From NCBI GenBank assembly GCA_022616055.1, contig JAKEFM010000284.1, positions 18,636 to 82,635 on the forward strand: a stretch of DNA of 64,000 nt. The letters are read 5' to 3'. The translations under genes were made by a program, and so were the position numbers. Under the pieces are notes generated by a model. It did not search any database and was not told the DNA's origin. It saw only the letters and a list, made by a program, of their open reading frames with translations. Position 1 is the first letter of the stretch. Every line of letters starts with the position of its first letter. Below are positions 1 to 29,926 of this stretch, in pieces. Origin of the DNA: Planctomycetota bacterium (lineage in GTDB: Bacteria > Planctomycetota > UBA1135 > JAKEFM01).

Positions 1-364
1 CTGGAAGGGGGAGGCCCACTTCCTCGGAGTCGCGGCGATGGCCATGCGGCGCGTGCTCGTCGACCACGCGCGCGCCAAGAAGGCCGAGAAGCGGGGCGGC
101 GGGCGGGAGCGGGTCGAGCTCGACGCCGAGCTCCCGCTCGACCTCGGCGAGGAGATCGACCTCGTCGCCCTCGACCGGGCGCTCGAGGAGCTCGCCGCGC
201 GCTCCGAGCGCCAGGTCCGCGTGGTCGAGCTGCGCTTCTTCGGAGGGCTCGACATGAAGAAGGTCGCCGAGACGCTCGGCATCGCCCTGCGGACGGCGGA
301 GGAGGACTGGCGCGTCGCGCGCGCCTGGCTCTCCTGGCGGCTGCGCCGCGAGGTCGAGGGATGA
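1..364 (+). CDS. ECF-type RNA polymerase sigma factor, C-terminal part (5' end lies outside the window)
   Basis: The frame is open from base 2 with no start in the window. Translation WKGEAHFLGVAAMAMRRVLVDHARAKKAEKRGGG...VVELRFFGGLDMKKVAETLGIALRTAEEDWRVARAWL is the linker plus sigma-70 region 4 HTH of an ECF sigma. The TGA overlaps the kinase ATG (ATGA at 361-364). Confidence 0.85.
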   Translation, partial: WKGEAHFLGVAAMAMRRVLVDHARAKKAEKRGGGRERVELDAELPLDLGEEIDLVALDRALEELAARSERQVRVVELRFFGGLDMKKVAETLGIALRTAEEDWRVARAWLSWRLRREVEG

Positions 365-3300
365 GGGATCCCCTCTACGACCGGGCGAGCGAGCTCTTCC
401 TCGCCGTCTGCGACCTCGCTCCGGCCGAACGGGAGGAGCGCCTCCAGCGCGCGTGCGTCGGGGACGCGGCGCTCCTCGCCCTGGTGCGCTCCCTGATCGG
501 GGGGGACGCGCGACCCCTGGTCCGCCTCGACGCCCCGGCCCTCGGTCCGGGCCTGGTCGATCCCTCCTCGTGGGAGAGGAGCCTGCCCGAGCGCGTGGCC
601 GGATACCGCGTCCTCTCCCGGATCGGGGAGGGGGGGATGGGCGTCGTCTTCCTCGCGGAGCAGGAGAAGCCCCGCCGACGGGTGGCCTTGAAGTGCATTC
701 GCACCCCCTTCGCCTCGGACGAGTTCCTGAAACGCTTCGAGCGCGAGGCGGAGATCCTCGGGTGGCTCAACCACCCGGGCATCGCGCAGGTCTTCGAGGC
801 GGGCACGGCCCGGGAGAACGGCCGGCCCTTCCCCTTCATCGCCATGGAGCTCGTCGACGGGAGGCCCTTGACGGAGTTCGCGGAGGCGGCCGGTCTCGGC
901 GTCCCGGCGCGCCTCGAGCTCCTCGCGGAGGTCTGCGACGCGGTCCACCACGCCCACGAGAAGGGGGTCATTCACCGCGACCTCAAGCCGCGCAACATCC
1001 TCGTGACGCCCGAGGGACGGCCGAAGGTCCTCGACTTCGGCGTGGCCCGCGCCGTCGAACCGGAGAAGGGGGAGGGCGCGTGGCGAACCCTCTCGGGCGA
1101 GCTGATCGGCACGCTTCCGACGATGAGCCCCGAGCAGCTCTCCCGCGATCCCTCGCAGGTCGACACGCGCAGCGACGTCTACGCCCTCGGGGTGGTCGCC
1201 TTCGAGCTCCTTGCCGGGCGCCTCCCGCACGACGTGACGGGCCTGCCGATGGACGAAGTCGTCCTCGCGATCGCGCGGGAGCCCGCCCCGCGGCTCCGCT
1301 CGATCCGCCCCGATCTCTCCGGCGACCTCGAGACGATCGTCGCCAAGGCGCTCGAGAAGGAGAGGAGCCGGCGTTACGCCTCGGCCGACGAGCTGGCGAA
1401 GGACCTGCGGCGCGTCCTGCGCCACGAGCCGATCGCGGCGCGGCCCCCGACCCTGCTCTACCACCTCGGGAAGTTCGCGCGCCGCAACAAGGCGCTCGTC
1501 GCGGGAGCGGCCCTCGGGGTCGCCGCCCTCCTCGCGGGCGCGATCGTCTCCCTCGGCCAGGCCGCTCGCGCGCGGGCCGCGGAGCGGACCTCCGAGGCGC
1601 GCGCGGCGCTCGCCCGGCGCCAGGGCTACCGCGCCTCGATCGCCGCCGCGCAGGGCGCGCTCGAGGCCCACGAGCCGCGCGAGGCGCGCCGCTACCTCGA
1701 GGAGGCCCCCGAGGAGGAGCGGCGCTGGGAGTGGCGTCACCTCTGGGCGCTCCTCGACGGCGGGCTCGGGCTCGTCCCCCCAGAGGAGGGCACCCTCGCC
1801 GCCGCGTTCGCCGCGGATCCCGAGGCGGTGCTGACGCTCTCGCGCGAGGGGGAGCTGGTCCGCCGGAACCCCGGACTCGGCGAGGTGATCGAGCGGCGCC
1901 CGCTCGGCGCGGGACCCCTTCTCTTCGGCGACTTCAGCGCCGACGGCCGCACGGTCGCCGCGCTCTTCGGGGCGGGCGGGAGCCGGGCGGCGGCATGGGA
2001 GACGCGGACGGGGGAGCGGACGTCGAGCGAGATCGAGCTCGGCCCCTCCTCGTGGCTCGCCGTCTCGGACGACGGCACGCGCCTCCTCGTCCAGGACAGC
2101 CTCAAGCCGCACGGCACGCTCCGGGTGCTCGCGCTCCCGGGCGGTGAGGAGGTGGCCTCCGCGCGATTCGTCGTCCACGCCGCCCATCTCGGGCCGGGCC
2201 GGTTCGTCTTCGGCGACTCCTACTCGAACAACTACGTCCGGGAGGAGTCCGGCGCCCGCATCTATCTCCCCACGGGGATCTTCCGCCAGACGACCTCCAT
2301 CGCGTCGTTCGAGGGGAACGCGACGATCCTCCTCGGCCTGAGCAACGGCAACATCCTGGAGATGGACCCGCTCGCCCGCGCGCCGGTGCGTGTCCTTGGG
2401 GGACACCGCGCCTCCGTCTCCTCGATCGACCCCGGGGCCGATCGCCTCGTCTCGGCGAGCGAGGACGGGACGCTCCGCGTCTGGCGGAAGGGGGAGGCGA
2501 GTCCGCGCTCGACGCTCTGCGGGAGCGAGGGGCGTCCGCTCCGCTCGGCCGCGCTCTCGCCCGACGCGCGCCGGGCGCTCGCGGTCACCGACGACGGGTC
2601 GGTCCGTCTCTGGGACCTCGAGCGGGAGGAGGGGGCCCAGCGCCTCACCCTCCACACGAGTTACGTCTACGACGTCGAGTTCTCGCCCGACGGCGCGCGC
2701 CTCGCCTCCTGCTCCTGGGACGGATCGCTCCGGGTGTGGGACGCCGAGGACGGCGAGCCCCTCGCCGTCCTCGAGGCCGGCCACCCCCTCCTCGACCTCG
2801 CCTGGTCCCCCGACGGCGCGACCCTCGCGGCGGGTTGCAAGGTCTCCGGCATGCACCGCTGGAACGCCGACACGGGCGAGGCGCTCCCCGAGGTCAGGAT
2901 CCCCGTCGAAATGTGGGTGAGCAGCGTCGCCTTCTCCCCCGACGGGCGACGGCTCGCCGCGGGGCTGCGCATCTTCTCGCGCTCGTACCGGGACGGCCTC
3001 GTCCTCGACGCGCGGACCGGCGAGGTCCTCGCCGACCTCGAGGTGGGGCCGGCCGAGTTCGACGCCGACGTCGCCTTCGACCCCGACGGCAGGCTCCTCC
3101 TCTCGGCCTCGCCCGCTCTCGTCGCCTTCGACCTCGAGTGGAAGGAGGCGCGGCGCACGTCGCCGCTCCCTTCGCAGCCCAACGCGCTCGCCGTGCGGCG
3201 GGACGGCGGGCTGCTCGCCACCGGTCACCGGGACTCCCGGATCCGCCTCTGGGACCCCCGCACGCTCGAATGCCTCCGCGAGATCGAGGGGCACAGGGGG

Positions 3301-3726
3301 AACGTCTACGGTCTCGCCTTCTCCCCCGACGGCACGCGCCTCGCCTCGGGAGCGGACGACGGGACGCTGCGCCTGTGGGACGTCGAGACCGGCGAACCCC
3401 TCGCCAAGTTCGAGGGGCACGGCGACTACGTCCATGCGGTCGCCTTCTCCCCCGACGGCCGGCAGGTCGCCACCGCGTCGGGCGACGGGACGATCCGCAT
3501 CTGGGACACCGTTCCGGAGCGCCTGCGCCGGCGCGCCGGACGAGAAGGCGCCCGGCTGCGGGAGCAGATGCGCCCGCGCGTCGATGCCCTCCTCGCCGAG
3601 CTCGGCGACCCCGCCGCGGTCGCCGCGCGCCTGCGCGGGGACCCTTCCCTGGATCCTTCGGCGCGCGAGGAGGCGCTGCGGGTCGTGCTCGCCACGGCCG
3701 CGGGGAGGCGCGGCACCGCCCGTTGA
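361..3726 (+). CDS. Membrane-spanning Ser/Thr protein kinase with C-terminal WD40 beta-propeller repeats
   Basis: 1121 aa. Hanks kinase motifs are present: GEGGMGVV, VALK, HRDLKPRNIL, DFG, SPEQ. There is one TM helix (ALVAGAALGVAALLAGAIVSL). WD40 signatures are repeated, e.g. GHRGNVYGLAFSPDGTRLASGADDGTLRLWD and GHGDYVHAVAFSPDGRQVATASGDGTIRIWD. Confidence 0.93.
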   Translation: MRDPLYDRASELFLAVCDLAPAEREERLQRACVGDAALLALVRSLIGGDARPLVRLDAPALGPGLVDPSSWERSLPERVAGYRVLSRIGEGGMGVVFLAEQEKPRRRVALKCIRTPFASDEFLKRFEREAEILGWLNHPGIAQVFEAGTARENGRPFPFIAMELVDGRPLTEFAEAAGLGVPARLELLAEVCDAVHHAHEKGVIHRDLKPRNILVTPEGRPKVLDFGVARAVEPEKGEGAWRTLSGELIGTLPTMSPEQLSRDPSQVDTRSDVYALGVVAFELLAGRLPHDVTGLPMDEVVLAIAREPAPRLRSIRPDLSGDLETIVAKALEKERSRRYASADELAKDLRRVLRHEPIAARPPTLLYHLGKFARRNKALVAGAALGVAALLAGAIVSLGQAARARAAERTSEARAALARRQGYRASIAAAQGALEAHEPREARRYLEEAPEEERRWEWRHLWALLDGGLGLVPPEEGTLAAAFAADPEAVLTLSREGELVRRNPGLGEVIERRPLGAGPLLFGDFSADGRTVAALFGAGGSRAAAWETRTGERTSSEIELGPSSWLAVSDDGTRLLVQDSLKPHGTLRVLALPGGEEVASARFVVHAAHLGPGRFVFGDSYSNNYVREESGARIYLPTGIFRQTTSIASFEGNATILLGLSNGNILEMDPLARAPVRVLGGHRASVSSIDPGADRLVSASEDGTLRVWRKGEASPRSTLCGSEGRPLRSAALSPDARRALAVTDDGSVRLWDLEREEGAQRLTLHTSYVYDVEFSPDGARLASCSWDGSLRVWDAEDGEPLAVLEAGHPLLDLAWSPDGATLAAGCKVSGMHRWNADTGEALPEVRIPVEMWVSSVAFSPDGRRLAAGLRIFSRSYRDGLVLDARTGEVLADLEVGPAEFDADVAFDPDGRLLLSASPALVAFDLEWKEARRTSPLPSQPNALAVRRDGGLLATGHRDSRIRLWDPRTLECLREIEGHRGNVYGLAFSPDGTRLASGADDGTLRLWDVETGEPLAKFEGHGDYVHAVAFSPDGRQVATASGDGTIRIWDTVPERLRRRAGREGARLREQMRPRVDALLAELGDPAAVAARLRGDPSLDPSAREEALRVVLATAAGRRGTAR

Positions 3727-6900: not shown

Positions 6901-7354
6901 CGGCGCCGCCGAGCCTCGGGCTGGCGAAGAGGACGCGCTTGCCGTCGGGGTGCCAGCCCACCACGCGATCGCCCATCGGGTGCCAGGTGAGGCGTTTCGG
7001 CGTCCCTCCCGTCGTCGGCAGCACGTAGACGTCTGCGTTCCCCTCGTACTGGCCGGTGAACGCGACGAGCCGTCCGTCGGGCGAGAAGCGCGGGCTCGAC
7101 TCGAGCCCGGCGTGGCTCGTGAGCCTCCGGGCGGTCCCGCCCGCGCGGGAGGCGATCCACACGTCGTTCGCGTAGACGAAGGCGACCTCGGCCGCCGAGA
7201 CGGTCGGGTCCTGGAGGAGGAGCGTCTCGCCCGCGGCGGCCGCGGGGGTCGGGACGGGCGCCTGGACCTGGACCGCCGTCGCCGGCCGGGCGCAGGCGGT
7301 GAGGGCCAGGATGGCGAGAGGGAGGGAACGGACGGCGTGGTGGCGGGGCGACAT
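3986..7354 (-). CDS. Exported tricorn-protease-like S41 peptidase (beta-propellers + PDZ-like + S41 core)
   Basis: 1122 aa with a signal peptide (LPLAILALTACARPATA). Propeller segments repeat (SPRFSPDGRLVAFTG, DPVWSPDGTKVAWFSD, DPKWSPDGKRILFND). The C-terminal S41-like core reads GGQLADYVVSVL...VVNEMAGSGGDAMPYLFQ. It carries an E/K-rich low-complexity insert. Confidence 0.85.
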   Translation of the reverse strand: MSPRHHAVRSLPLAILALTACARPATAVQVQAPVPTPAAAAGETLLLQDPTVSAAEVAFVYANDVWIASRAGGTARRLTSHAGLESSPRFSPDGRLVAFTGQYEGNADVYVLPTTGGTPKRLTWHPMGDRVVGWHPDGKRVLFASPRLGGAEVARLYLVSVDGGPEELLEIPRAFRATFGGEGKIVYTPVPDAFRTWKRYRGGRTTPIWIFDRATKEVEQVPHVVATDTFPCFVDGEVFFASDRDGVMNVWRFKPGGKEATRVTDFRDFGVRNMSAGGGAIAFERGGAIHLLDPRKNQSTRLSILCPSDGLEGRPRWQDAKGSVRKASVAPNGKRAVFETRGEVVTVPREHGDARNLTNSPAAHDRDPVWSPDGTKVAWFSDASGEYRLLVRDHLGKEEAKAFDLGGGAFFHDPKWSPDGKRILFNDKTNRLAFVTLETGALTDVWRSAGSLGVVRPAGVWSGDSAWIAFEQRDPSTTYDRVALFEVATGKVLRVTDAFGSADGPCFSRDGKFLFFRASTASGPNRFGLDMSASAARYGRGNLYVCVLRKGEKSPVAPRSDEGVGDAEEDEEKGAKEEEKGKGEEKGKEEGQEKEPGPETRPKKKEPPKTALDAEGLDQRVLALPLPEGDYGSLQCGEKALYFLVEAEAPEEEGDGPRIGTVLKAFEFKKRKAKEVAKGVADYEISADGKSLLLRTKEGWSLADLEAKEKKALAVDAVKVRVDPEREWPQILREAWRIERDYFYDRNMHGIEWPKMWDRWSAFLPHVRHRSDLNVLVAEMIGELCCGHEYVGGGEMPEVPREAPVGLLGADFAVENGRHRIARIYAGQNWNPGLRAPLTEPGVDARVGDYLIAVNGVPLTGAENLERAFVHTADRQTELTLSEQPDGSNPRTATVVPVADDQSLRKRAWVEANRMRVEDLSGGRLAYVYMPDTGFQGRVSFDRDFYSQLGKEGVVLDERFNHGGQLADYVVSVLDRKVLCYWMNREEWLGRSPFGTIEGPKVMVVNEMAGSGGDAMPYLFQKMEIGPLVGTRTWGGLVGISGYPPLMDGGSVTAASFGIMDTEGNWAVENVGVHPDVEVVEWPKEMIAGKDPQLEKAVSLAMDALKKSPPRKPPVYKPPTTR

Positions 7355-7430
7355 GCGGTCGGACTCCGGAGCGAGGAGCGCGCCGGGGACTCTATCGCGA
7401 TCGCGCGGCCTGCAGAGGGCCAGGCTCCGG

Positions 7431-7457
7431 GGAACCCGATGTCACGGCGAAGGGGTC
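7431..7457 (+). promoter_or_regulatory. Candidate ECF-type promoter (GGAACC-N18-GTC) upstream of sigma-fusion gene 1
   Basis: GGAACC lies at 7431-7436 and GTC at 7455-7457, about 22 nt before ATG 7479. The spacing is one nt longer than in the better match at 51803-51828, and the -10 reads GGTC rather than CGTC. Confidence 0.3.
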
Positions 7458-7478
7458 CGCGGGATATTCCAAGCGACC

Positions 7479-10439
7479 ATGGCCCCGGATCCCCTCCCCG
7501 CCCGGCCGGAGATCCTCCTCGCCAATGCCGACTGGGTGCGGGCGCTCGCCCGGAGCCTCGCGAGCGACTCCGCGGAGGCCGACGACCTGGAGCAGGAGAC
7601 CTGGCTCGCGGCCCTCGACCACCCGGCCCCCACGGGCGGACGGCTCCGACCCTGGCTCGTCCGGGTGCTGCGCAACCTCGTGCGGAAGAGGCGTCGAACC
7701 GACCTCCGCCGGAAAGCGAGGGAGGAGGCCTCCGCCGGACCCTCCCCTCCCGGCGATCCCGCGGCGCTCGTCGAGCGGATCTCGATTCAGCAAGACGTCG
7801 TCCGGACGGTGGTCGCCCTCGACGAGCCCTATCGGTCCACGCTCCTCCTCCGGTACTTCGAGGGGCTCGAGATCGGCGAGATCGCACGCCGCCAGAGGAT
7901 CCCCCACGCCACGGTCCGGCAGCGACTGAAGAGGGGGCGGGAGCGCCTCCGCGAACGGCTCCTCCCTCGCTATGGAGGTGATCGGGAGGCCTGGTCGGCC
8001 GCGATGCTGCGCCTCGCGGAAACGCTCCGACCGCACCCGGCGCCGCTCCCACCCGGGGTCCCGGTGCTCGCCGCCGCCGGGAAGAAGGTGGCGGTCGGGA
8101 TCGCCGCGACCCTCCTCGTCGGCGTCGTCGGCTGGAGGGCAGGGATCTTCCCCGTCGGGCCGCCCGCAAACCCGATCCCCCCGACACCCGTGGCGGAGGC
8201 CACGCCCTTCCCAGGGAACGAGCGGGAGACCGGGAGGTCGGCGGACGAGTCGAGGTCTCCGGGTGCCGTGCGACGTGCTGCGGTCGCGGCTTCGCCCGCG
8301 ACCGACGGAGGATCGGGAGACGCGACCGCGTCCGGCCGTCTCGTCGTCCGGGCGCGCTGGAGGGAGGACGGCAGGGCGGCGGAGGGAGTCGTGGCGGTGG
8401 TCGGGAGGCCGGGTTCGACGGACTCGTGGACGGCCTGCGCGGAGACCGACGATCGAGGTGAGGTCCACTTCGTGCGCCTCCTCGCCGGTCGGTTCCGGGC
8501 TGCCCTCTGGGGGGGCGAGGAGGAGGAGGTGCTCGTGGCCGGAGGGGAGGAGGTCCGCGTGGAGTTGTCGGTCCCGCGCGGATTCGCGGTCGTGGGACGC
8601 GTCGTCGACCAAGGAGAGAGAGGCGTCCCCTCGGCCGATCTCTGGCTCTCGGCTCCCGAGAATTCCCGGCTCGGACTCGTCGTCTGCAAGACGGACGAGT
8701 CGGGAGGGTTCCGCCTCCCGTTCGTGACGGTGGACCAGTTCATCGGGGCGCGTGCCGCCGGGAAGCCCCCTTCCTACCTGCAGTCCGTCCGCGGCCGACC
8801 GGGGGACGAGGTCCGGATCCGGATCGTCCTCGAAGATTCCACGGCCCGGCTCGCGGGGAGCGTCTTCGACGGCTCCGGGGCTCCCGTCGCGGGTGCGTCC
8901 GTCGCCGTCACCGACCCGGACCGGAACTCGACCGTCCTGCTCTTCGACGGTCGAGGGACCCGCAATCCGCCGCCGCAGTGGAAGGTGACGGACGGAAGCG
9001 GAGCGTTCCGGTTCGACTCCCTCGCGCCGAGGCGCCTGCTCCTGGTCGTCTGGGCGCGGGGATTCGGCCTGTTCCGCAGGGTGATGGAGGCGCCCTCCAC
9101 GGACGAGGAGGAGGTCCGCGTGACGCTCGAGCCGGAGGCGCGGGTGTCGGGTCGCGTGACGGACGACCGCGGCCGCCCTGTCGCTCGCGCGAGGGTGGAG
9201 CGGATCGGGCCCGAGTCCATCTCTCGGTCGAGCGTGACCTCGGACGAAGACGGACGGTTCGAGCTCGCCGACCTCCCCGCCGAGGAGGCGACCTTCACGG
9301 CCCGCCACGATCGCCTCGGATTCGCCCTCGTCCGGCTGCGGCCGGAGGCGGGTCGGACGAAGGAGTGGAACCCGGTCCTGGCGAAGGAGGGGGGGCTCTC
9401 CGGCGACCTCGCCGACGCGTCGGGCCGTCCGCTCGGGGGCTGGTCGATCACCGTCCGGGACCCCTCGGAGCGCGATGCGCGAGAGACGGTTGTCCAGACC
9501 CGCTCGGACGGGTCGTTCTCCGTCCCGCTCCCGCCGGAGGGGCGACTCGAGATCCAGGCCTGCGCGCCCGGGGCCTGGACGGAGTTCCCGGCGCTCGTGC
9601 GACGCGACGTCGATCCCGACGCCGGCCCGATCCACCTCGTCCTCGCCGAACCGGATCGCACGTTCGGCCGGATCCTCGGGGCCGTCGCCGACCCCGAGGG
9701 GAAGCCGTCGGACGACGCGCTCGTGAGCGTCGACTCTCCCGGCTCGGCCCTGTGGCGGGGGTTCGTCCCCGAGGCCGGGACCGGCCGATTCGAGATCGAA
9801 CGGGTTCCTCCGGGACCCTGCCTCGTGGAAGTGCGCCCCCGCGAGTTCCCCTGGGTGTCCCTCGGTTCGCTCGAGGTCCGGGCGGGCGAGGTCGTCGACG
9901 TCGGGGCGGTCCGCCTCCGGCGGGGAGGAACGCTGAGCGGCGAGATCACTGGCGCCGCGGAGGCGTCGCTCGCGACCCTCGAGATCGAGCTCGCCGCCGA
10001 GGAATGGAAGGCTGCGAGGCCCGTCAGCCGGACCGGCAAGCGATTCTGGACGGGAAGCCTCGCCCCGGGCCGCTATCGACTCTCGGTCCGAGGAGACGGC
10101 CTCTGGAGCGAGGGGGCCGAGTGCGAGGTCGAGGAGGGGCTCGCGAAGCGAGTCGAGATCGCGGTCGAGCGCGCGGGTCTCCGGCGGGCGCTCTTCGAGC
10201 TCCCGCCCGACGCGACCCGGCCCGGTTGGCTCTGGTGCGAGGTCTACCGGGACGAGGAGCCGATCTGGGTCTGGGGCATGGAACCTTCGCCCTGGCGCGC
10301 GCCGGAGGCCCGGATCTCCGTCCCCCCCGGCGTGTATCGCCTCCATGCGGGGACGGACACCGGCCTCTCCTACGAGGGGCCGCTCGAGATGGGGGCCGCC
10401 GGCGAGGAGGGACCCTCGCTCTCCGTCCCTCTGCGCTAG
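7479..10439 (+). CDS. ECF sigma factor fused to a TM helix and a ~700 aa extracytoplasmic CarboxypepD_reg-like repeat array (copy 1)
   Basis: 986 aa from ATG 7479; the track start at 7299 adds an R-rich, non-protein-like leader. Sigma region 2 reads DDLEQETWLAALDH...WLVRVLRNLVRKRRR. Region 4 reads LDEPYRSTLLLRYFEGLEIGEIARRQRIPHATVRQRLKRGRERL. The TM helix is KKVAVGIAATLLVGVVGW. At least five G-x-V-x-D-x-x-G-x-P motifs follow (GRVVDQGERGVPSADLWL, GSVFDGSGAPVAGASVAV, GRVTDDRGRPVARARVER, GDLADASGRPLGGWSITV, GAVADPEGKPSDDALVSV). Confidence 0.8.
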   Translation: MAPDPLPARPEILLANADWVRALARSLASDSAEADDLEQETWLAALDHPAPTGGRLRPWLVRVLRNLVRKRRRTDLRRKAREEASAGPSPPGDPAALVERISIQQDVVRTVVALDEPYRSTLLLRYFEGLEIGEIARRQRIPHATVRQRLKRGRERLRERLLPRYGGDREAWSAAMLRLAETLRPHPAPLPPGVPVLAAAGKKVAVGIAATLLVGVVGWRAGIFPVGPPANPIPPTPVAEATPFPGNERETGRSADESRSPGAVRRAAVAASPATDGGSGDATASGRLVVRARWREDGRAAEGVVAVVGRPGSTDSWTACAETDDRGEVHFVRLLAGRFRAALWGGEEEEVLVAGGEEVRVELSVPRGFAVVGRVVDQGERGVPSADLWLSAPENSRLGLVVCKTDESGGFRLPFVTVDQFIGARAAGKPPSYLQSVRGRPGDEVRIRIVLEDSTARLAGSVFDGSGAPVAGASVAVTDPDRNSTVLLFDGRGTRNPPPQWKVTDGSGAFRFDSLAPRRLLLVVWARGFGLFRRVMEAPSTDEEEVRVTLEPEARVSGRVTDDRGRPVARARVERIGPESISRSSVTSDEDGRFELADLPAEEATFTARHDRLGFALVRLRPEAGRTKEWNPVLAKEGGLSGDLADASGRPLGGWSITVRDPSERDARETVVQTRSDGSFSVPLPPEGRLEIQACAPGAWTEFPALVRRDVDPDAGPIHLVLAEPDRTFGRILGAVADPEGKPSDDALVSVDSPGSALWRGFVPEAGTGRFEIERVPPGPCLVEVRPREFPWVSLGSLEVRAGEVVDVGAVRLRRGGTLSGEITGAAEASLATLEIELAAEEWKAARPVSRTGKRFWTGSLAPGRYRLSVRGDGLWSEGAECEVEEGLAKRVEIAVERAGLRRALFELPPDATRPGWLWCEVYRDEEPIWVWGMEPSPWRAPEARISVPPGVYRLHAGTDTGLSYEGPLEMGAAGEEGPSLSVPLR

Positions 10440-10786
10440 ATCCCGACGCGAAGCTCGAGACCGTTGCTCGCCGTGACGAGGAACGGGGCGGCCGGATCGA
10501 GGAGGGCGGCCTGGAGGTAGAGGCTCGCGTTCGCGAGCACGGCCAGGATGGGAATCGGAATCGGGATGTCGACCGTCCCGGCGCCCGCCACGCCCGGAGC
10601 GCCGAGCTTCGTGAACGGGAGGAACGAGAGGAGCCCAGAGACGTAGCTCGTCATCCCGGGGACGGGAGTATCCGGGAAGGCGGCCTCGGCCGTCCCCACG
10701 GCGAGGAGGGCCGGTGCGCCGCCGAGCCCGCGCCGCAGCCGGACCGCGGCGGTCGTCGAGCCGGGACGGAGCGGCCCGGTCGCGCC
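10436..10786 (-). pseudogene. Orphan fragment encoding only the shared exoprotein C-terminal module (no passenger domain, no signal peptide)
   Basis: The minus-strand translation ...GLGGAPALLAVGTAEAAFPDTPVPGMTSYVSGLLSFLPFTKLGAPGVAGAGTVDIPIPIPILAVLANASLYLQAALLDPAAPFLVTASNGLELRVGI* aligns with the C-termini of the genes ending at 12855, 15011, 30086, 44764 and 49144. The upstream part of ORF 10436..10981 is R/S/P-rich and overlaps the start of the next gene. Confidence 0.45.
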
Positions 10787-10968
10787 TCGGACCGGCCCCG
10801 ACTCTACTGCCGAGGGGGACCGGGCGGAACCCGTCCCGGATCGAGGAGGAAGGGGGCACGCTTGACGGCTCCGAACCTCGACGGATAGCGTCAGCCGTGA
10901 ACGCGGATCCAAGAGAAGACCGGTTCGGGGGGAGGGCCCGCGTGAGTCCCGTTGTGTGAGGTGACGAC

Positions 10969-12855
10969 ATGATCCGGACACTCCTCGCGTCGACCCTCCT
11001 CCTCGCCCCTCTCGCCTCCGTCGCGACCGCCCAGTCGACGGCGTGCGTGGCCGGGGCGCCGGTCAGCTCCTACTGGGTCTGCCCCTACGCGTCCGGGTTC
11101 ACCTCGATCCTCGGCGATCCCGCGACCCAGTCGGTCGGATTCGGCTCCTGCTCGGACAATTCCCAGACGAACCCGAACGGGATCTCGATCCCCTTCGCCT
11201 TCTCCTACTTCGGATCGGCGACGAACTCCGTCCGGCCGAACACGAACGGCTCGATGAAGATCGGGTCGGGGGGAGGGGGAGACACGCCCGCGAACCAGGT
11301 CCTCCCCTCCACCGCGTCGCCCAACGGGATGGTGGCGCCCTTCTGGGACGACCTGAAGACGGGGCCGGTGGGCGATCCCTCCGCCATCTCCTACCTCGCG
11401 ACGCCCGCCTCCCTGATCGTCGAGTGGAACAACATGAAGTTCTCCGCGGCCGGCGCGTCGGGAGGCTCGCCGGGCCGGAACGGGAGCGTCACCTTCCAGG
11501 CCGCGCTCTTCCCGAACGGCGTGATCGAGTTCCGCTACGGGCCCTACACGCCCCCCGACACGACCACCTGCCCGCCGTACCCCGCGGACTCCTGCGGCTC
11601 CTCCTCGGCGTTCCCGCAGTCGGGGCCGACCGCGACGATCGGCCTCGAGAACACGGGCGGGACGGTCGGGGTCGACGGGACGGGGCTCGGAGGGGCGAAT
11701 CCCGCCCCCCCCCGCCACAACCTCCGCTTCACCCCCGCGACGGTGACCCCGGTCCCGGTCACCTACACGGTCACCTCGAACGGGACCCCCCCCTTCGCGT
11801 CGATCCAGGGCCTCCCGGGGACCATCCCGATGCTCCCGAGCCCGGGGTTCAACGACCCCGCGACCTGCCCGTCCTGCCCGGACAACTCGGGGTGGTTGCG
11901 CCAGCCGACGGCCGGGCCCGGCTCCGCGGCGAGCGGACCCGGGTCGATCCCCTGGCCCTTCACCCTCTTCGGGAGGGTCGCCCGCCACTTCAACCTCAAC
12001 GCGAACGGCATCCTCGTCCTCGGCGACCCGCTCGGCGGGGATCTCTCGTCGAACGCCTCCCCCTCGAGCAGCGCCGCCCCCAACTTCTACATCGCCCCGT
12101 TCTGGGACGACCTCGAGGCGACGGGGAGCTCCTTCGTGGGGGTGCGCCTCGGGAGCGTCCCGCCGTTCCGGACCCTGACGTTCGAGTGGAACGGCCTGGG
12201 GCTCTTCGACGGGACCTCGGGGGACTGCTCCGCGAGCGCCGACAGCGTCCGGATGCAGGTCGTCCTCCTCGAGGCCTCGGACAACATCGAGATCCGGTAC
12301 GACCCCACGAGCGTCCTCGGCGCGGGCTTCTCCGCCACCGCCGCGGTCGAGTCCGCCAGCGGTGCGTCCTCCGTGTCCACTCTCCCCGACTCGTCGAACG
12401 CCGCCCTCCCTCCGAGCAACGTCCTCCTCGACCCCTGCGACTGCGGAGCGGTCCGCTACCTCGGGCTCGGCTGCCCGGGGACGGGGGGCTTCGTCCCGAG
12501 GATCGGGACGACGGGCGTGGCGCCCGTCCTCGGCGCGGCGAACTTCGGCGTGACGATCACGGACGCGCTCGGGGGAGCGCCCGCGACCTTCGTCGTCGGG
12601 CTGGGTCCGCTCGGGCCGGGCGGACTCGTCGTCGTCCCGCCCTGCACGATGTGGGGCTTCGGGCTCCTGACGGCGGGGGGGGGACTGACGACCCCCGGGC
12701 CGCCCGGGTCGGGGACCCGCTGCGTCCTCGCGCCGATCCCGGCTGACCCCTCCCTGTCCTGCGGTACGCTCTCCCTCCAGGCCTCGGTCGTCGACCTCGG
12801 CGCCGCGAGCGGCCTCGTCGCGTTCACCGAGACGCTCCTCGTGACGATTCTCTAG
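10969..12855 (+). CDS. Secreted protein with two NIDO-like modules and the shared C-terminal module
   Basis: 628 aa. Signal peptide MIRTLLASTLLLAPLASVATAQS, with RBS GAGGTGA 5 nt upstream. The module is duplicated: FAFSYFG...VRPNTNG...APFWDDL...VEWNN...FQAALFPNGVIEFRY is followed by a second copy FTLFG...LNANG...APFWDDL...FEWNG...MQVVLLEASDNIEIRY. The C-terminus is ...PIPADPSLSCGTLSLQASVVD...TETLLVTIL. Confidence 0.85.
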   Translation: MIRTLLASTLLLAPLASVATAQSTACVAGAPVSSYWVCPYASGFTSILGDPATQSVGFGSCSDNSQTNPNGISIPFAFSYFGSATNSVRPNTNGSMKIGSGGGGDTPANQVLPSTASPNGMVAPFWDDLKTGPVGDPSAISYLATPASLIVEWNNMKFSAAGASGGSPGRNGSVTFQAALFPNGVIEFRYGPYTPPDTTTCPPYPADSCGSSSAFPQSGPTATIGLENTGGTVGVDGTGLGGANPAPPRHNLRFTPATVTPVPVTYTVTSNGTPPFASIQGLPGTIPMLPSPGFNDPATCPSCPDNSGWLRQPTAGPGSAASGPGSIPWPFTLFGRVARHFNLNANGILVLGDPLGGDLSSNASPSSSAAPNFYIAPFWDDLEATGSSFVGVRLGSVPPFRTLTFEWNGLGLFDGTSGDCSASADSVRMQVVLLEASDNIEIRYDPTSVLGAGFSATAAVESASGASSVSTLPDSSNAALPPSNVLLDPCDCGAVRYLGLGCPGTGGFVPRIGTTGVAPVLGAANFGVTITDALGGAPATFVVGLGPLGPGGLVVVPPCTMWGFGLLTAGGGLTTPGPPGSGTRCVLAPIPADPSLSCGTLSLQASVVDLGAASGLVAFTETLLVTIL

Positions 12856-12860
12856 CCCCT

Positions 12861-12921
12861 CGAAGGGGGGCCCGAGCGATACCGGAGCGCCGATCCGGGG
12901 TTTCTCGGAGGCCCCCCTTCG
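12861..12921 (+). other. Long intergenic stem-loop between two co-oriented exoprotein genes
   Basis: CGAAGGGGGGCC (12861-12872) pairs with GGCCCCCCTTCG (12910-12921). It extends through CCGAG/CTCGG, and there is a smaller competing hairpin CCCCT-cga-AGGGG right after the stop codon. Confidence 0.5.
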
Positions 12922-12944
12922 TCTCCAGCCCGGGAGGATCCGGC

Positions 12945-15011
12945 ATGCGACCCGCCACGATCCTGACGCTCCTCCTCGCCGCGCGGGCCTCCGCCCAGGG
13001 CTCCCCGACCGGCCTCGCCGCGACGGTCCAGTCCGGCCAGACCTTCCTCACCTGGAACGAGGTCGCCGGCGCGGGGGTGAAGTACCGCGTCTACCGCTCG
13101 ACCTCCCCGATCGCCTCCGCCGCGAGCCTCCCCTCCGCGGTCCTCCTCGGCGAGGTCGGCGACGCGACGAGCGAGAACGTCCGGGCGACGGGGCTCACCG
13201 GCGCGACGACCTTCTTCCGGATCACCGACCTCGGCCCCCCGCTCGCCGCCTCCCAGGGGCTCTTCGTCCACACGCAGACGGTCGCCGAGGACGCCTTCTA
13301 CGCGCTGACCTCCGTCGCCGGCGGCGTCGAGAACACCTCGATCGCGACCGGCGCGAACTCCCTCGCGGCGCCGGCGGTCGAGGTCCCGGCGATCCCGCGC
13401 CCCGTCCTCCAGGTCCTGCAGGGGGACCTGCGGGACTACGTCCACTGGGTCTCCGCCCACGACTCCCCCTTCGCCCCGGCGATGTGGAACGCGCCGAGCC
13501 GGGCCTTCAACCTCCGGGTCCGCTTCGATCCCTCGGCGAGCCCGCTCCCGCGCCCCGTCCTCCTCGTGATGCACGCCCGGGGAGGGAACTACGCGGCGAC
13601 GGGGATCCCCGACCTCTCCCATCCCGAGGCGGTGATCCTCTCCCCCGACGACTGGATCGGGGCCGCGCCGATGAACACGTTCTGGTACGGGATGAACGCG
13701 GGGTTCCCGGCGATCGGCTCGTTCCCCGGCTTCCTGAACGTCGACACCACCGTCCGCCGCGTGATGGCGGAACTGGACTTCGTCCAGGCCGAGTTCCCGA
13801 CCGACCCGGCCCGGGTCCACGCGCGCGGCGCCTCGATGGGCGGGATCGGGGCGGTCTTCCTCGCCTACCGTCACCCGGACCGGTTCGCGGCGGCCCACGC
13901 CGTGATCCCGAAGTTCGACTTCGGCTGCGCCGCGAACGGTTGCTGGATCGAGCCCCAGGCGGGGAACCAGCTGTGGGGCACCGTAGCCCAGAACCTCCCG
14001 ACGACCGACGGCATCGGCGTCTACGACCGGCTCGACCTCGGCTTCCTCGCGGGGATGGACCCCGGAACCGACCTCCCCCCGATCTTCGCGTTCAACGGCC
14101 GCAACGACGTCGTCGTCGGCTGGCCCGAGAAGCCCCCCACCTACGCGGCGATCCAGGCCGCCCGCCAGCCCGCGGAGTTCTACTGGGACGACGGGACGCA
14201 CGGCGCGCCGAATCCCGTCGGGGCGGGGCCCTGGGCGCAGGTGATCGGCCAGCGCAGGAACCTCCTCTGGAGCCTCCGGATCGACCAGGCGGTCCCCGCG
14301 TTCTCGAACCTGTCGGTCGACGACGACCCGGGCGACGGCGATCCCGACGTCGGCGACCTCGTCGGGACGATCAACGGGTACGCGACCTGGGACCTCGCCA
14401 CGATCGAGGACGAGGCGGACCATCACGCCCTCGTCGCGTCCCTCCGGACCGGGCCCGGACCGGACGCCTCCCCCTCCCCGTCCGCGACGGCGGACTGGAC
14501 TCCGCGCCGGCTCCAGGCCTTCCCCCGGGCGCCGGGGATGCACGCGAGGTTCTCGAACGAGCAGCAGCCCGCGGGCCTCCTGATCGACGACCGCGTCGTC
14601 ACGGCGGACGGCGACGGCGTGTTCACGGTCGGGGCCGCGACCCTGACGACGGCGGGGAACCTCCTCCGTCTGGAGACGATCGACCTCTCGTCGCTTCCCG
14701 CGCTCCTCGCGACCGGGGTCGTGCGCCCGGGCGGGTTCCTCCACCTGAACGTCTTCGGCGCCCCCGCCGAGCCCTCCTTCCTCTTCCTCGGGGTCCTCCC
14801 CGCCTCCTTCACGGTCCCCGGCATCTCCGGGACCGTCGGGATCGGCGATCCGACGCTCCTCGTGGGCGCGCCGATCGGCGTGGACGGGAAGCTCGTCGTC
14901 GCGATCCCCCTCGATCCGTCCCTCTCCTGCTTCATCGGGGCGACGGTGAGGTTCCAGGCGCTCGTGTCCCTCGCGCTCACGGGGACCGAGGTCGTGACGC
15001 TCCTCCCCTGA
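12945..15011 (+). CDS. Secreted alpha/beta-hydrolase (esterase-like) with an FN3-like N-terminus and the shared C-terminal module
   Basis: 688 aa. Signal peptide MRPATILTLLLAARASAQG. The nucleophile elbow GASMGG sits in HARGASMGGIGAVFLAYRHPDRF. The C-terminus ...VVAIPLDPSLSCFIGATVRFQALVSLALTGTEVVTLLP matches the shared module. Confidence 0.8.
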   Translation: MRPATILTLLLAARASAQGSPTGLAATVQSGQTFLTWNEVAGAGVKYRVYRSTSPIASAASLPSAVLLGEVGDATSENVRATGLTGATTFFRITDLGPPLAASQGLFVHTQTVAEDAFYALTSVAGGVENTSIATGANSLAAPAVEVPAIPRPVLQVLQGDLRDYVHWVSAHDSPFAPAMWNAPSRAFNLRVRFDPSASPLPRPVLLVMHARGGNYAATGIPDLSHPEAVILSPDDWIGAAPMNTFWYGMNAGFPAIGSFPGFLNVDTTVRRVMAELDFVQAEFPTDPARVHARGASMGGIGAVFLAYRHPDRFAAAHAVIPKFDFGCAANGCWIEPQAGNQLWGTVAQNLPTTDGIGVYDRLDLGFLAGMDPGTDLPPIFAFNGRNDVVVGWPEKPPTYAAIQAARQPAEFYWDDGTHGAPNPVGAGPWAQVIGQRRNLLWSLRIDQAVPAFSNLSVDDDPGDGDPDVGDLVGTINGYATWDLATIEDEADHHALVASLRTGPGPDASPSPSATADWTPRRLQAFPRAPGMHARFSNEQQPAGLLIDDRVVTADGDGVFTVGAATLTTAGNLLRLETIDLSSLPALLATGVVRPGGFLHLNVFGAPAEPSFLFLGVLPASFTVPGISGTVGIGDPTLLVGAPIGVDGKLVVAIPLDPSLSCFIGATVRFQALVSLALTGTEVVTLLP

Positions 15012-25753: not shown

Positions 25754-27151
25754 TCAGGCGGGCCTCTCCTTCCTCTTCGCCGCTCGCCTCGTCTCCTCGA
25801 GGCCCCCCGCCACCGAGTCCGTGCCCTTCGCGACCCGGTCGTTCCACGACTCGGATCCCGGCGGGCCCGGCGCCTCCTCCATCGAGATGCACCCCTCGAC
25901 CGGGCAGACGAGCGCGCAGAGGTTGCAGCCGACGCATTCCTCGAGGTGGACGAAGGGGACGTAGCGGTCGGGGAAGGAGCCCGGAGCGCGGACTGGCACC
26001 TTCGGGACCTCCTTCGGGACGACCGTGTGGCCGGCGGCGCGGGACTGCGCCTCGGTGCGACCGGGGAGGTGGATGCACTGGTGCGCGCCGTCCATGCAGG
26101 CGACGTAGCAGAGCTGGCAGCCGATGCACTTGCCGGGGTCGATCACCGCCTTGAGGCGGTAGTTGAGGTCGAGCTCGCCCCACTCGCGGAAGGCCGGGAC
26201 GGCGGCGCCGCGGAGGTCGTTCACCGACTTCAGACCTCTGGCGTCGAGGTAGTCCGAGAGCCCCTCGACCATGTCCTCGACGATCCGGAAGCCGTAGTGC
26301 ATGACGGCGGTGCAGACCTGGACGCTCGCCGCGCCGAGGGCGATGAACTCGGCCGCGTCGCGCCAGTTCGAGATGCCGCCGATGCCGGAGATCGGGAGGC
26401 GGGCCGTCGCCGGGTGGCGGGCGAGGCGGCCGATCATGTGGAGGGCGATCGGCTTCACGGCCGGCCCGCAGTAGCCGCCGTTCGTCGAGAAGGACCCGAC
26501 GCGCGGGAGCGGGACGAGGCGGTCGAGGTCGACCCCCATCAGGGACTGGAGGGTGTTGATCAGGGAGAGGCCGCGGGCGCCGCCGCGCAGGGCCGCCTCG
26601 GCGGGCTCCGTGATGTCCCCGACGTTCGGCGTGAGCTTGACGAGGACGGGGGTGCGCGCGAACTCGACGGCCCAGCGCGTGATCTCCTCGAGGACCTTCG
26701 GCTCCTGCCCGACGGCCGAGCCCATCCCCCGCTCGCACATCCCGTGGGGGCAGCCGAAGTTCAGCTCCAGGCCGTCGGCGCCGGCGTCCTCGGAACGGCG
26801 GATGACCTCCTTCCACTCCTCCTTCGTCTCGACCATCAGGGAGACGACGAGGGCGTTCCTGGGCCAGCGCTTCTTCACCTCCGCGATCTCCCGGAGGTTC
26901 TCCTCGATCGGGCGGTCGGTGATCAGCTCGATGTTGTTGAAGCCGATCATCCGCCGGTCCCCGTAGTCGATCGACCCGAAGCGGCTGTTCACGTTCACGA
27001 TCGGGTTCCCGATCGTCTTCCAGACCGCTCCCCCCCATCCCGCGTCGAACGCGCGGAGGACCTGGGCGGCGCTGTTCGCGGGGGGGCCCGAGGCGAGCCA
27101 GAAGGGGTTCGGGCTCCTGATCCCCGCGAAGTCGATCGAGAGATCCGCCAT
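25754..27151 (-). CDS. preA: NAD-dependent dihydropyrimidine dehydrogenase subunit PreA (DHOD-like TIM barrel + 2x 4Fe-4S)
   Basis: 465 aa from ATG 27151 (MADLSIDFAGIRSPNPFWLASGPP...). It contains NFGCPHGM and LTPNVGDI, and C-terminal ferredoxin motifs CIGCQLCYVAC and CVGCNLCALVCP. The 971-aa track ORF runs through because no upstream in-frame stop exists. Confidence 0.9.
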   Translation of the reverse strand: MADLSIDFAGIRSPNPFWLASGPPANSAAQVLRAFDAGWGGAVWKTIGNPIVNVNSRFGSIDYGDRRMIGFNNIELITDRPIEENLREIAEVKKRWPRNALVVSLMVETKEEWKEVIRRSEDAGADGLELNFGCPHGMCERGMGSAVGQEPKVLEEITRWAVEFARTPVLVKLTPNVGDITEPAEAALRGGARGLSLINTLQSLMGVDLDRLVPLPRVGSFSTNGGYCGPAVKPIALHMIGRLARHPATARLPISGIGGISNWRDAAEFIALGAASVQVCTAVMHYGFRIVEDMVEGLSDYLDARGLKSVNDLRGAAVPAFREWGELDLNYRLKAVIDPGKCIGCQLCYVACMDGAHQCIHLPGRTEAQSRAAGHTVVPKEVPKVPVRAPGSFPDRYVPFVHLEECVGCNLCALVCPVEGCISMEEAPGPPGSESWNDRVAKGTDSVAGGLEETRRAAKRKERPA

Positions 27152-27219
27152 CGTCGGGCGCCCGGTTCCGGCGCCGAGGGCGCGGAGCATAGCACGGCCC
27201 TCGGGAGGCCCGGATCCGG

Positions 27220-29484
27220 TCATCCACGGAAGGCCCGGCGGAGGGTCCCGAGGAAGCGCTCGATCTCGGCCTGAACCCCGGCGGACTGGCTCACGATCAT
27301 CAGGCGGTCCCAGTGCCCGATGCGCGCCTCCGGATAGTTCTGCCAGCTGGCCGGGGCCACCGAGCTCCGCAGGAGGTTGTCGAGGGCCTCGGCCGCCTCG
27401 TCCGGATCCTCGTCGACGTCGGCCTTCAAGAGATCCTCGATGTCGTAGAAGCGGAGCTCCATCGAGGGTCTCGGGCCGAGCGCCACGGCGTCCTCGCGGA
27501 CCGAGAGCGTGAGGTTCGAGAGGGTCGCCACCCACTCGACCGCCCGGGAGAGGGGCACGCGCTCCAGGTGGAGCGTGATCGGAAGGTCGGGGTCCGCATC
27601 CCGGTCGAGGAGGAGGGGGAGGCCGCACTCCGAGCGCAGCCAGGCGCAGGCGCCCTTCAGGGGGGCGGAGTCGAGATGGACGGAGACCTCTCGCCCGAGG
27701 GCCTGCTCGAGGGCCGCGGTCACCGGGGAAGGATCCGGCTCGCCGCCGCGGCCCCGGTTCCGGAGCTGGGTGAGGAACCGCGCGAGCTCGCGGTGGACCG
27801 CCTCGGTCTGGTTCACGAGGAGCAGTCCCTTCCAGTGCGCCACCCCCACCGACTCCCTCTCCCACGATTCCGGCACGACGACGCTCCGGATGAGGTCGAC
27901 CAGACGGTCGGGTCGATCGTCCTCCCCGCCGGAGACGAGCGGGCGGATGTCGTAGACCCGCTGCTCGTAGCGGGAAGGAACCGCCCCGCGCGGGGCGACG
28001 AAGACGGCCCCCTGGACGAGGCCCCACTCGAGTTCCGTCGCCTCGCAGAAGCGATCGAGCGCCCTCTCGAGCGTCACGTCCGCGGCTTCGAGGTCGAGGG
28101 CCTCCCCGGCGCGCTCCGCGAGGGTGTCCGGGTGGACGACGAGATCCACCTTCCCCTCCGCCCGCAGCCCGTCGAGGACGGCCCGGAAGGACGTGTCGGC
28201 GAAGCGGAGCGTCACCCGCGTCGCCAGTTTCCTCCGCAGATCCTCCTCCCACGACGGCGCCGAGCCGCGGCGCTCGACGTGGATCGGCTCGACCGCGGCC
28301 GGATCCTGCGCGGCGCCCGACCCTTTCTCGGCCGGCGGGGAGAGGGGCTGGGCGCCGGTGAAGGCGACGAGCACGATCCCGCCGCCCAGGGCGAAAGCCG
28401 ACGCCCGGCCGCGGCGGGAACCCGACTCGTGGTTCGCGATCATCGAAATCCTCCGTTTCATCTCCCGGTGCCCTTCGAGGATGGGGAGCAGGGCGGAGCG
28501 GCGCCCCCCGGCGGAGCAGCACTCGATCAGCTTGATCAGCGTCCGTCCGTAGACCCGCTGGAGCTCGGACCCCGCCGGCTGGAGGGCGGTCCAGTCCCGC
28601 GCCGACTCCCGCTCCGCGCGGATCCGGCGGGTGGAGAACCAGACCGCCGGGTTGAACCAGTGCACGCACTCGAGGAGGGCGAGCAGGGCGTTCAGCGGGC
28701 CGTCCCTCGCGCGGAGGTGCGCCAGCTCGTGGCGGAACACGCAGGCCAGCTCCTCGGCGGAGAATCGCCCCTCCAGATGCGGCGGGAGGAGCAGGCGAGG
28801 CCGCAGCAGACCGACGAGCGCGGGCGCCCGGACCGCGTCGGTCGCGAGGATCCGCGGGGGCCGCTTCACCCCGAGGGAGCGCGCGCTCGAGGCGAGCGCG
28901 TCGAGGACCGCGGGGTCCTCGACGGCGCGAGCCCCGCGCAGCGCCCGCGCGAAGCGGAACTCGAGGACGAGGATCCGGAGGGCGAGGACCGCGGCGACCG
29001 ACAGCCAGAGGAGGAGCGCCCAGCTCGCCCGGTCCCTCGACGGAGATCCCGGGCCGGCCGGTCCGGCCTCGAGCGTCGGGGCCGCGATCGGGGCGAGGAC
29101 GGCGGACTCGGTCCCGACGGCCGGCTTCGGAGCCTTCGGCGGCGGGACCTTGGGCTCCCTCCCCCGCTCGGGTCGCGGGGCCTCGTCCGCCCGCGCGACC
29201 TCCGCCGCCGGGCCAACCGGCGGAGCGGCGGAGCGCGGTCCGAGGGGAGCCGGGGCGGACGGGGCGGGCGCCAGGTTGAAGATGCTCCAGGGAGCCTCGG
29301 GCAAGGCCGGCACCAGCAGCCGCCCGACCACCAGGAGCCAGAGGGCGTAGCGCGCGTGCGGCGTCAGGAAGCGGCCCCCGAGACTGAGCGCCGCGAGGAT
29401 CAGGGCGGCGAGGACGGCCACCTGCCAGGTCGTCCGCCAGAGCCAGTCGAGGACCCCGGGCGCCAGCGAGTCGGCCGCGTTCAT
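27220..29484 (-). CDS. BlaR1-like M56 peptidase signal transducer with a non-PBP extracytoplasmic domain
   Basis: 754 aa with several TM helices. The zinc motif is HELAHLRARD. After the last TM helix (ASAFALGGGIVLVAFTG) come paired modules (RVYDIRPLV...VVPESWE...LLVNQTEAVHRELARFLTQLR and LRFYDIEDLL...VAPASWQ...MIVSQSAGVQAEIERFLGTLR), not a penicillin-binding fold. ATG 29484 overlaps the upstream stop (ATGA). Confidence 0.85.
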   Translation of the reverse strand: MNAADSLAPGVLDWLWRTTWQVAVLAALILAALSLGGRFLTPHARYALWLLVVGRLLVPALPEAPWSIFNLAPAPSAPAPLGPRSAAPPVGPAAEVARADEAPRPERGREPKVPPPKAPKPAVGTESAVLAPIAAPTLEAGPAGPGSPSRDRASWALLLWLSVAAVLALRILVLEFRFARALRGARAVEDPAVLDALASSARSLGVKRPPRILATDAVRAPALVGLLRPRLLLPPHLEGRFSAEELACVFRHELAHLRARDGPLNALLALLECVHWFNPAVWFSTRRIRAERESARDWTALQPAGSELQRVYGRTLIKLIECCSAGGRRSALLPILEGHREMKRRISMIANHESGSRRGRASAFALGGGIVLVAFTGAQPLSPPAEKGSGAAQDPAAVEPIHVERRGSAPSWEEDLRRKLATRVTLRFADTSFRAVLDGLRAEGKVDLVVHPDTLAERAGEALDLEAADVTLERALDRFCEATELEWGLVQGAVFVAPRGAVPSRYEQRVYDIRPLVSGGEDDRPDRLVDLIRSVVVPESWERESVGVAHWKGLLLVNQTEAVHRELARFLTQLRNRGRGGEPDPSPVTAALEQALGREVSVHLDSAPLKGACAWLRSECGLPLLLDRDADPDLPITLHLERVPLSRAVEWVATLSNLTLSVREDAVALGPRPSMELRFYDIEDLLKADVDEDPDEAAEALDNLLRSSVAPASWQNYPEARIGHWDRLMIVSQSAGVQAEIERFLGTLRRAFRG

Positions 29485-29861
29485 CCCCGCGGCTCCTTCT
29501 CCTCGAGGATCCGCCGCAGCTCCTCGATCTCCCCGCGGGTGAGGCGGCTTCGCTTCACGAAGTGGAGGAGGAGAGGGCTCGCCGACCCGTCGAAGACCCG
29601 CGCAACGAAGGATCGGCCCTCCGCGGCGACGCACGCCTCGCGGGAGACCGCCGGCTCGTAGAGGTAGCGCTTCCCGTCGGACTCGGTCGAGAGGACCCCC
29701 TTCTTGACGAGCCGCGCGAGGAGCGTCTTCACCGTCCGATCCGTCCAGGCGGCCTGCGGGCCGAGGGCCTGGGCGACCTGGCTTGCGGTCCGCGGGTGCT
29801 CCTCCCAGAGGACCCGCATCACCTTCCACTCGGCCTCCGAGATGCGCGGGGGCGCCTTCAT
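29481..29861 (-). CDS. BlaI/MecI/CopY family transcriptional repressor
   Basis: 126 aa. The winged-helix N-terminus reads ISEAEWKVMRVLWEEHPRTASQVAQAL...WTDRTVKTLLARLVKKGVL...DGKRYLYEP. It is translationally coupled to the M56 gene. Confidence 0.92.
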   Translation of the reverse strand: MKAPPRISEAEWKVMRVLWEEHPRTASQVAQALGPQAAWTDRTVKTLLARLVKKGVLSTESDGKRYLYEPAVSREACVAAEGRSFVARVFDGSASPLLLHFVKRSRLTRGEIEELRRILEEKEPRG

Positions 29862-29892
29862 CGAGAGCCTTCCTAGTCGCCGGGAACGGGAT

Positions 29893-29926
29893 GACTACAG
29901 CCGTAGTCTTGATTACAGCCGTAGTC
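29893..29926 (-). promoter_or_regulatory. Two tandem dyad operators upstream of the BlaI-like gene
   Basis: GACTACAGCCGTAGTC (29893-29908; a perfect GACTAC-N4-GTAGTC dyad) and GATTACAGCCGTAGTC (29911-29926) lie 32-65 nt upstream of the start codon. The TACA...GTA core is reminiscent of BlaI/MecI operators. Confidence 0.65.

Follow-up and report, generated by a model that had tools for sequence, protein, structure and literature searches.

Several bacterial sorting or anchoring systems rely on parts shared by otherwise unrelated exported proteins. PEP-CTERM/exosortase, LPXTG/sortase, MYXO-CTERM, and GlyGly-CTERM signals are tripartite sequences of ∼25 to 35 residues, consisting of a motif, a transmembrane (TM) helix, and a basic tail, each served by a dedicated protease. 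Dockerins are ∼70-amino-acid (aa) calcium-binding helical repeats. In one type IX secretion system (T9SS), that of Porphyromonas gingivalis, the C-terminal domain (CTD) of RgpB forms a seven-strand Ig-like sandwich, which PorU cleaves (PMC4804311). Here, a module found at the C termini of exported proteins was analyzed in a 64-kb stretch of DNA from a Planctomycetota bacterium (GenBank assembly GCA_022616055.1; contig JAKEFM010000284.1, positions 18,636 to 82,635), referred to below as the window. Six copies of the module, 105 to 141 residues in length, were identified within the window; five form the C termini of proteins encoded by genes designated here A to E, and the sixth (copy F) is the decaying 3′ remnant of a gene (Table 1).

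A sequence-only reading of the window had proposed that a C-terminal module is shared by five exoproteins with unrelated passengers and that it is a candidate sorting or anchoring tag. The module was recovered in all five exoproteins and in the minus-strand copy F, and a Pfam scan bore out the diversity of the passengers (NIDO-like, esterase, FG-GAP, repeats assigned to no family, and FG-GAP_3/VCBS). Pairwise BLASTP comparisons of the last 150 residues gave a best E value of 5e−13 (D versus F) and values of 1e−5 to 1e−8 among A, C, D, and E, with copy B the weakest (2e−3 to 0.07). A hidden Markov model (HMM) built from the six copies, as the sequence-only reading had suggested, was searched against the window translated in six frames and matched exactly those six, the next best match having an E value of 0.65. 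To avoid circularity, an independent profile was constructed from 154 database modules from which every window-like sequence had been left out. With the search-space size set to 1e6, this profile returned E values of 1e−39 for D, 3e−27 for F, 3e−22 for C, 1e−21 for A, and 6e−9 for E, and missed copy B. When compared directly with the profile, copy B scored 21.7 bits in a co-linear alignment over profile positions 16 to 112, while 500 shuffles averaged 0.2 bits (standard deviation, 1.75) and did not exceed 8.8. The GC content at third codon positions (GC3) was 0.88 to 0.97 in the modules and 0.89 to 0.97 in the five full open reading frames (ORFs), values typical of coding sequence in a window of 72% GC.

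The similarity is thus confirmed as genuine across all six copies. Translations rich in Gly, Ala, and Pro from a genome of 72% GC could resemble one another by chance or composition, and the residues G, A, P, and L do abound in the modules, with copy B resembling the others weakly. Such an artefact is refuted, however, by independent-profile E values reaching 1e−39, by shuffled scores of at most 8.8 bits against 21.7 to 47 bits for the weakest copies, by the lack of a match to any other six-frame ORF of the window, and by a confident structure model (see below); it can be regarded as effectively excluded.

To assess the size of the family, a profile was searched exhaustively against the representatives of 1.84 billion clusters (50% identity); this identified 5,379 clusters at an E value of ≤1e−3 and 589 at ≤1e−10. 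The position of the module within its carriers was strongly skewed. Its end lay 0 to 3 residues from the C terminus in 156 of the 163 proteins inspected (96%), and the same was seen in raw DNA without gene calls, where 40 of 41 module hits stopped within 3 residues of a stop codon (25/26 in six-frame translations of the related contig L001 and genome loci, and 15/15 in further loci; the lone exception was a partial fragment). Internal modules were therefore far from being as frequent as C-terminal ones; equal frequencies would have told against the proposed tag. All nine members named at NCBI came from Planctomycetota/Planctomycetes metagenome-assembled genomes (MAGs), and all members from uncultured organisms. 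As far as named sequences show, the module is specific to uncultured Planctomycetota. Word-indexed protein searches, which have poor reach in so Gly/Ala-rich a family, returned few matches, mostly unnamed. Loci could be searched for only with the two-cysteine subtype, since general alignments lacked a conserved stretch of 7 to 10 residues, and this search yielded two genomes and seven metagenome contigs. The sub-pattern QW[YL][VI][VA][DT]PGP alone occurred at no fewer than 13 loci (≥13) in MAG DASRRH01 and at 7 in CBRGOK01, and adjacent (tandem) pairs of module genes were common in related loci.

The carriers of the module proved diverse. Among 92 full-length members, Pfam identified FG-GAP passengers in 29 and, in smaller numbers, BNR, β-helix, subtilase S8, carboxypeptidase M14, α/β hydrolase, lactonase-like propeller, and other passengers; many were not glycan-active enzymes, and no Pfam family was common to all 92. 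N termini resembling signal peptides were found in 76 to 88 of 103 full-length homologs (74 to 85%) according to two crude rules, so most carriers look exported at the resolution of those rules, and the scarcity of signal peptides that would have told against a sorting tag was not seen. Several of the negative members start inside repeats and look truncated. Some carriers are small: in P0003, P0005, P0007, P0012, and P0014 (∼210 aa), only a short Gly-rich motif ('GGGYDLSWHTFDGGG...GQPDAG...') lies between the signal peptide and the module, and in P0001 and P0004 (175 aa), a single FG-GAP repeat separates the signal peptide from a short module.

AlphaFold2 modeling of the D module from a 31-sequence alignment produced an all-β structure of ten strands with a predicted local distance difference test (pLDDT) score of 97.2 and a predicted template modeling (pTM) score of 0.87. 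The short E module was modeled at a pLDDT of 75.5 with its strands in the same order as in D. The module is accordingly predicted to be an autonomously folding β-sandwich of ∼125 residues and ten strands, or a short form of 105 to 113 residues; B and E are short forms, in which the first strand ('YGxGxxGxGG') is absent. Positions conserved across the family are mainly Gly and Pro at turns, together with two polar positions: the penultimate strand contains a Gln (98%), which is closely followed by an Asp (93%). The possibility that the invariant Gln forms an ester or isopeptide cross-link with a Thr was considered and dropped, as the candidate Thr is not conserved family-wide. The cysteines of 'GxGC' and 'C.LL' co-vary, both being present in 40 members, neither in 105, and a single one in 16. 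By inspection of the sequences, other subtypes appear to pair a Cys 6 to 7 residues before YG with the 'GTGC' Cys or with that of the penultimate 'xIC x', and a Cys is frequent at −6 or −7 of the junction between passenger and module. These patterns suggest alternative disulfides and oxidative folding outside the cytoplasm.

Searches of curated libraries revealed no described family covering the module. Pfam and NCBIfam gave nothing over the module in the six window proteins (E ≤ 0.1) or in 31 family modules (E ≤ 1), and Pfam gave nothing over it in the 92 full-length proteins; the libraries scanned include T9SS CTD, curated -CTERM sorting, dockerin, pre-peptidase C-terminal (PPC), Ig, and carbohydrate-binding module (CBM) families. 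A profile search of PDB sequences produced a single spurious match (E value, 0.93), and literature searches found no description of the domain. Using Foldseek against the PDB, the best E value was 4e−3, and the neighbors, with template modeling (TM) scores of 0.36 to 0.53, were generic Ig-like/E-set sandwiches, including lytic polysaccharide monooxygenases (LPMOs), transglutaminase barrels, LAIR/KIR, NPC2, a porphyran CBM, and a glycoside hydrolase accessory domain. A match to a well-characterized domain, which would have undermined the original proposal, was thus not obtained in Pfam, NCBIfam, PDB sequences, or PDB folds. The domain family described here is very large, has no entry in the Pfam or NCBIfam libraries searched, is modeled with confidence, and is distributed in uncultured Planctomycetota in the manner of cargo.

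In architecture, the module is like the T9SS CTD. In both cases, a folded β-sandwich (a predicted one in the module) occupies the extreme C terminus of Sec-exported proteins with diverse passengers, the genes are dispersed with many paralogs per genome, and conservation is mainly at structural positions. A divergent form of a known sorting signal (T9SS CTD, PEP-CTERM, MYXO-CTERM, or LPXTG) was therefore considered, as a signal peptide followed by a diverse passenger and a shared C-terminal β-sandwich mirrors T9SS cargo (PMC4804311). The resemblance is in architecture only. The module has ten predicted strands over ∼125 aa, compared with seven strands in the RgpB CTD (PMC4804311), and shares no sequence or profile similarity with T9SS CTDs: the type A (TIGR04183/PF18962) and type B (TIGR04131) models were unmatched, no sorting model of NCBIfam or Pfam was matched at an E value of ≤1 across 31 members, PDB sequences gave no match, and no T9SS CTD was present among the top 50 structural neighbors. 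The named hosts are all Planctomycetota, whereas T9SS hosts are Bacteroidota, and unlike the T9SS CTD, the module has rare N-terminal or internal placements. Neither the window nor 33 related loci contained any PorU/PorV/Sov(SprA)-type machinery. The co-varying cysteine pairs of the module suggest disulfides.

The short C-terminal signals are likewise common to many exported proteins and are recognized by the same comparative logic; however, the module is a folded domain of >100 aa that ends in a β-strand (e.g., '..GLEVTIG') with no terminal hydrophobic helix or basic tail. The impression gained from the sequence alone, that the module is unlike T9SS, PEP-CTERM, MYXO-CTERM, and LPXTG signals and lacks a terminal TM helix, was borne out, and membership in a known class of sorting signal is very improbable and effectively excluded. 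Like dockerins and SLH domains, the module is common to unrelated secreted proteins and mostly C-terminal, with other positions occasionally tolerated, and by analogy it would be bound by one cell-surface partner. It differs from dockerins (PF00404) and SLH domains (PF00395) in its all-β model, in matching neither Pfam family, and in having no known cohesin-like partner.

The reading that we favor, and to which we give about an even chance, is that the module serves as a common handle recognized by one cellular partner, for retention at the surface or for export through the outer membrane. It is favored because a signal peptide, an arbitrary passenger, the same terminal domain, many paralogs, and dispersed genes together form the pattern by which cargo tags were recognized earlier. 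A carrier would enter the periplasm by the Sec pathway, after which disulfides would form and the domain would fold. The folded domain would then be bound by one common cellular partner, which might be a receptor holding the protein at the cell surface, following the logic of dockerins or SLH domains, or an outer-membrane export route, following that of the T9SS CTD. Unrelated enzymes and adhesin-like propellers would in this way share one destination. Both the recognition by a partner and the action of that partner are what we infer. The proposed sorting or anchoring role was partly supported, by C-terminal position, diverse passengers, signal-peptide-like N termini, and paralogs; the processing or secretion gene that might accompany it was not found in the window or the 33 related loci.

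Several observations weigh against a handle of this kind. Neither a candidate receptor nor a protease or translocon was identified in the window or the 33 related loci. The junction between passenger and module carries no cleavage motif or flexible linker. Five of the 163 members (∼3%) carry the domain elsewhere than at the C terminus, with continuous, sensible sequence on both sides: in P0033, P0059, and P0091, a subfamily of ∼480 aa, it directly follows the signal peptide and precedes a lactonase/YncE-like propeller, and P0064 (a subtilase) and P0129 have it at an internal position. A free C terminus is consequently not essential, and the module is an autonomous folded domain rather than a signal strictly dependent on such a terminus. 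No conserved neighbor emerged from tblastn searches of window genes against the loci or from all-against-all clustering of flanking ORFs (31 sequences); across the 33 related loci, recurrence was limited to an abundant family of Ser/Thr kinases and to local synteny. This is as expected for the dispersed cargo of a shared pathway; it is also among the reasons why a sorting or anchoring role stays an unproven proposal. Lastly, the predicted fold, a generic sandwich, could equally belong to a binding domain.

A lineage-specific, CBM-like or Ig-like E-set domain for ligand binding or adhesion, which would lend secreted enzymes and propeller proteins an affinity for some shared substrate or surface in the environment and play no part in sorting, is accordingly a possible explanation, which we hold at less than even probability. 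Like generic Ig-like/E-set domains and CBMs, the module is predicted to be a β-sandwich that folds autonomously, and it occurs on hydrolases, which make up many of the carriers; its weak PDB neighbors include the porphyran-binding CBM, the glycoside hydrolase accessory domain, LPMOs, and Ig-like receptors; and the N-terminal and internal placements would suit such a domain. However, no Pfam CBM, Ig, or other family was matched, the HMMs for PPC (PF04151), bacterial Ig-like, and CBM families being silent in both the 31 modules and the 92 full-length proteins, and even the best PDB neighbors remain distant (E ≥ 4e−3). Gly and Pro account for nearly all conserved positions, with no conserved aromatic platform of binding residues visible, and FG-GAP propellers, which are not glycan-active enzymes, make up one-third of the passengers. 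The restriction to the extreme C terminus (96%) is also stricter than is known to be usual for CBMs.

A structural role in folding or oligomerization, as a C-terminal cap or an intramolecular chaperone that would stabilize exported proteins and is possibly removed later in the manner of the PPC domains of secreted proteases, was also weighed. The tight, linker-free joining of module to passenger, the disulfide patterns, and the proteases (S8 and M14) among the carriers would fit such a role. It is nevertheless unlikely, as a common folding aid is not expected for passengers of unrelated folds, PPC was not matched, and small proteins such as P0001 and P0004 contain little beyond a signal peptide and the module.

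Returning to the common handle, a more specific form of it can be put forward tentatively and with appreciably less confidence: the module may be the recognition domain of an undescribed Planctomycetota pathway for export or surface attachment, with thousands of cargo proteins, and a functional analogue of the Bacteroidota T9SS CTD to which it would be evolutionarily unrelated. To our knowledge, protein transport across or onto the unusual envelope of Planctomycetota is poorly understood, and the lineages that carry the module are known only from metagenomes. If the module is a true C-terminal mark on exported enzymes and on proteins resembling adhesins, its >5,000 clusters (50% identity) would provide a ready predictor of the surface or secreted proteome, a way to trace the partner machinery through phylogenetic profiling, and a candidate tag for protein display. 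Even as a binding domain only, it would constitute a large, well-defined family with a confident model that the Pfam and NCBIfam libraries searched lack.

TABLE 1 Module carriers, copy F, and other genes of the 64-kb window
Feature	Positions	Strand	Module positions	Description
Gene A	10969-12855	+	∼12430-12852	628 aa; signal peptide, NIDO-like passenger, C-terminal module
Gene B	12945-15011	+	∼14694-15008	688-aa exported esterase (α/β hydrolase); divergent short-form module
Gene C	30086-31801	−	∼30089-30478	571-aa exported FG-GAP propeller protein
Gene D	42008-44764	+	∼44357-44761	918 aa, exported
Gene E	49144-51765	−	∼49147-49485	873-aa exported FG-GAP_3 (former VCBS family) repeat protein; short-form module
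Copy F	10439-10798	−		Orphan module, 3′ remnant of a gene for a ∼870-aa protein; between the upstream gene and A
Kinase	361-3726	+		Fusion of a Ser/Thr protein kinase with WD40 repeats, 1,121 aa
Sigma factor fusion	7299-10439	+		ECF sigma-70 regions 2 and 4 with many CarboxypepD_reg repeats
Sigma factor fusion	51956-55471	−		ECF sigma-70 regions 2 and 4 with many CarboxypepD_reg repeats
M56 peptidase/sensor	27220-29928	−		902 aa, BlaR1-type
Catabolic set	25754-27217, 34038-35384, 35387-36742, 38868-40244, 40288-41160, 45217-46920	−		Resembles reductive pyrimidine/β-alanine catabolism

All five full proteins have N termini like Sec signal peptides, ending in AQ in A, B, D, and E and in GQ in C. 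A crude hydropathy rule scored A, B, D, and E as positive and C as borderline. The N terminus of A (MIRTLLASTLLLAPLASVATAQ) is signal-peptide-like, and its module spans residues 496 to 627 according to the independent profile. The Pfam NIDO match of A (24 bits) falls just under the cut-off, while P0015, a near-identical ortholog on contig L001, scores 32 bits. Gene B was matched by Pfam Esterase (E value, 1.8e−8), and a protein identical to its product is present in MAG GCA_973789155.1. Gene C was matched by FG-GAP (5e−38), and its module belongs to the two-cysteine 'GxGC...C.LL' subtype. Gene D starts at the ATG at position 42008 and encodes the signal peptide MKKTFFASAALSIACGVASAQ, which corrects the sequence-only reading; its passenger (42008-44356, ∼780 aa) appears repetitive and had no matches in Pfam or NCBIfam. 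Gene E was matched by FG-GAP_3 (6e−104) and has close homologs in P0001, P0004, P0006, P0009, and P0011.

Copy F is a relic and no longer an intact gene: a start codon, a signal peptide, and the first module strand are all missing, and its GC3 is 0.89 in the module and 0.58 upstream. It is 65% identical to the final 118 residues of P0017, a protein of 870 aa. In a relative, a fragment of 87 aa (P0018) was annotated by a gene caller, and the closely related contig L001 carries an extra deletion of ∼250 bp inside this copy (∼9781-9814 of L001). The window and L001 therefore show different stages of its loss.

Other genes were noted around the module carriers. Four other loci have homologs of the WD40-fused kinase close to their module genes, a recurrence that is probably due to the abundance of this family in these genomes. 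The two extracytoplasmic function (ECF) sigma factor fusions lie directly upstream of module genes (one of F, A, and B, the other of E), and this arrangement is kept in L001; judging by tblastn against other loci, the fusion is not a general neighbor of module genes. The BlaR1-type gene is immediately downstream of C on the same strand, and its ORF as listed starts at TTG, leaving its N terminus uncertain. The window also encodes a Tricorn-like protease and Hsp20. One module locus elsewhere contains a PSCyt2/PSD1-DUF1501 gene pair, which we take to be typical of Planctomycetota. The putative catabolic set comprises DHO_dh plus Fer4, Fer4_20 plus Pyr_redox_2, class-III aminotransferase, amidohydrolase, CN hydrolase, and aldehyde dehydrogenase genes, with module genes C and D interspersed among them. 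On the metagenome contig L026, a module gene likewise lies beside homologs of three genes of this set.

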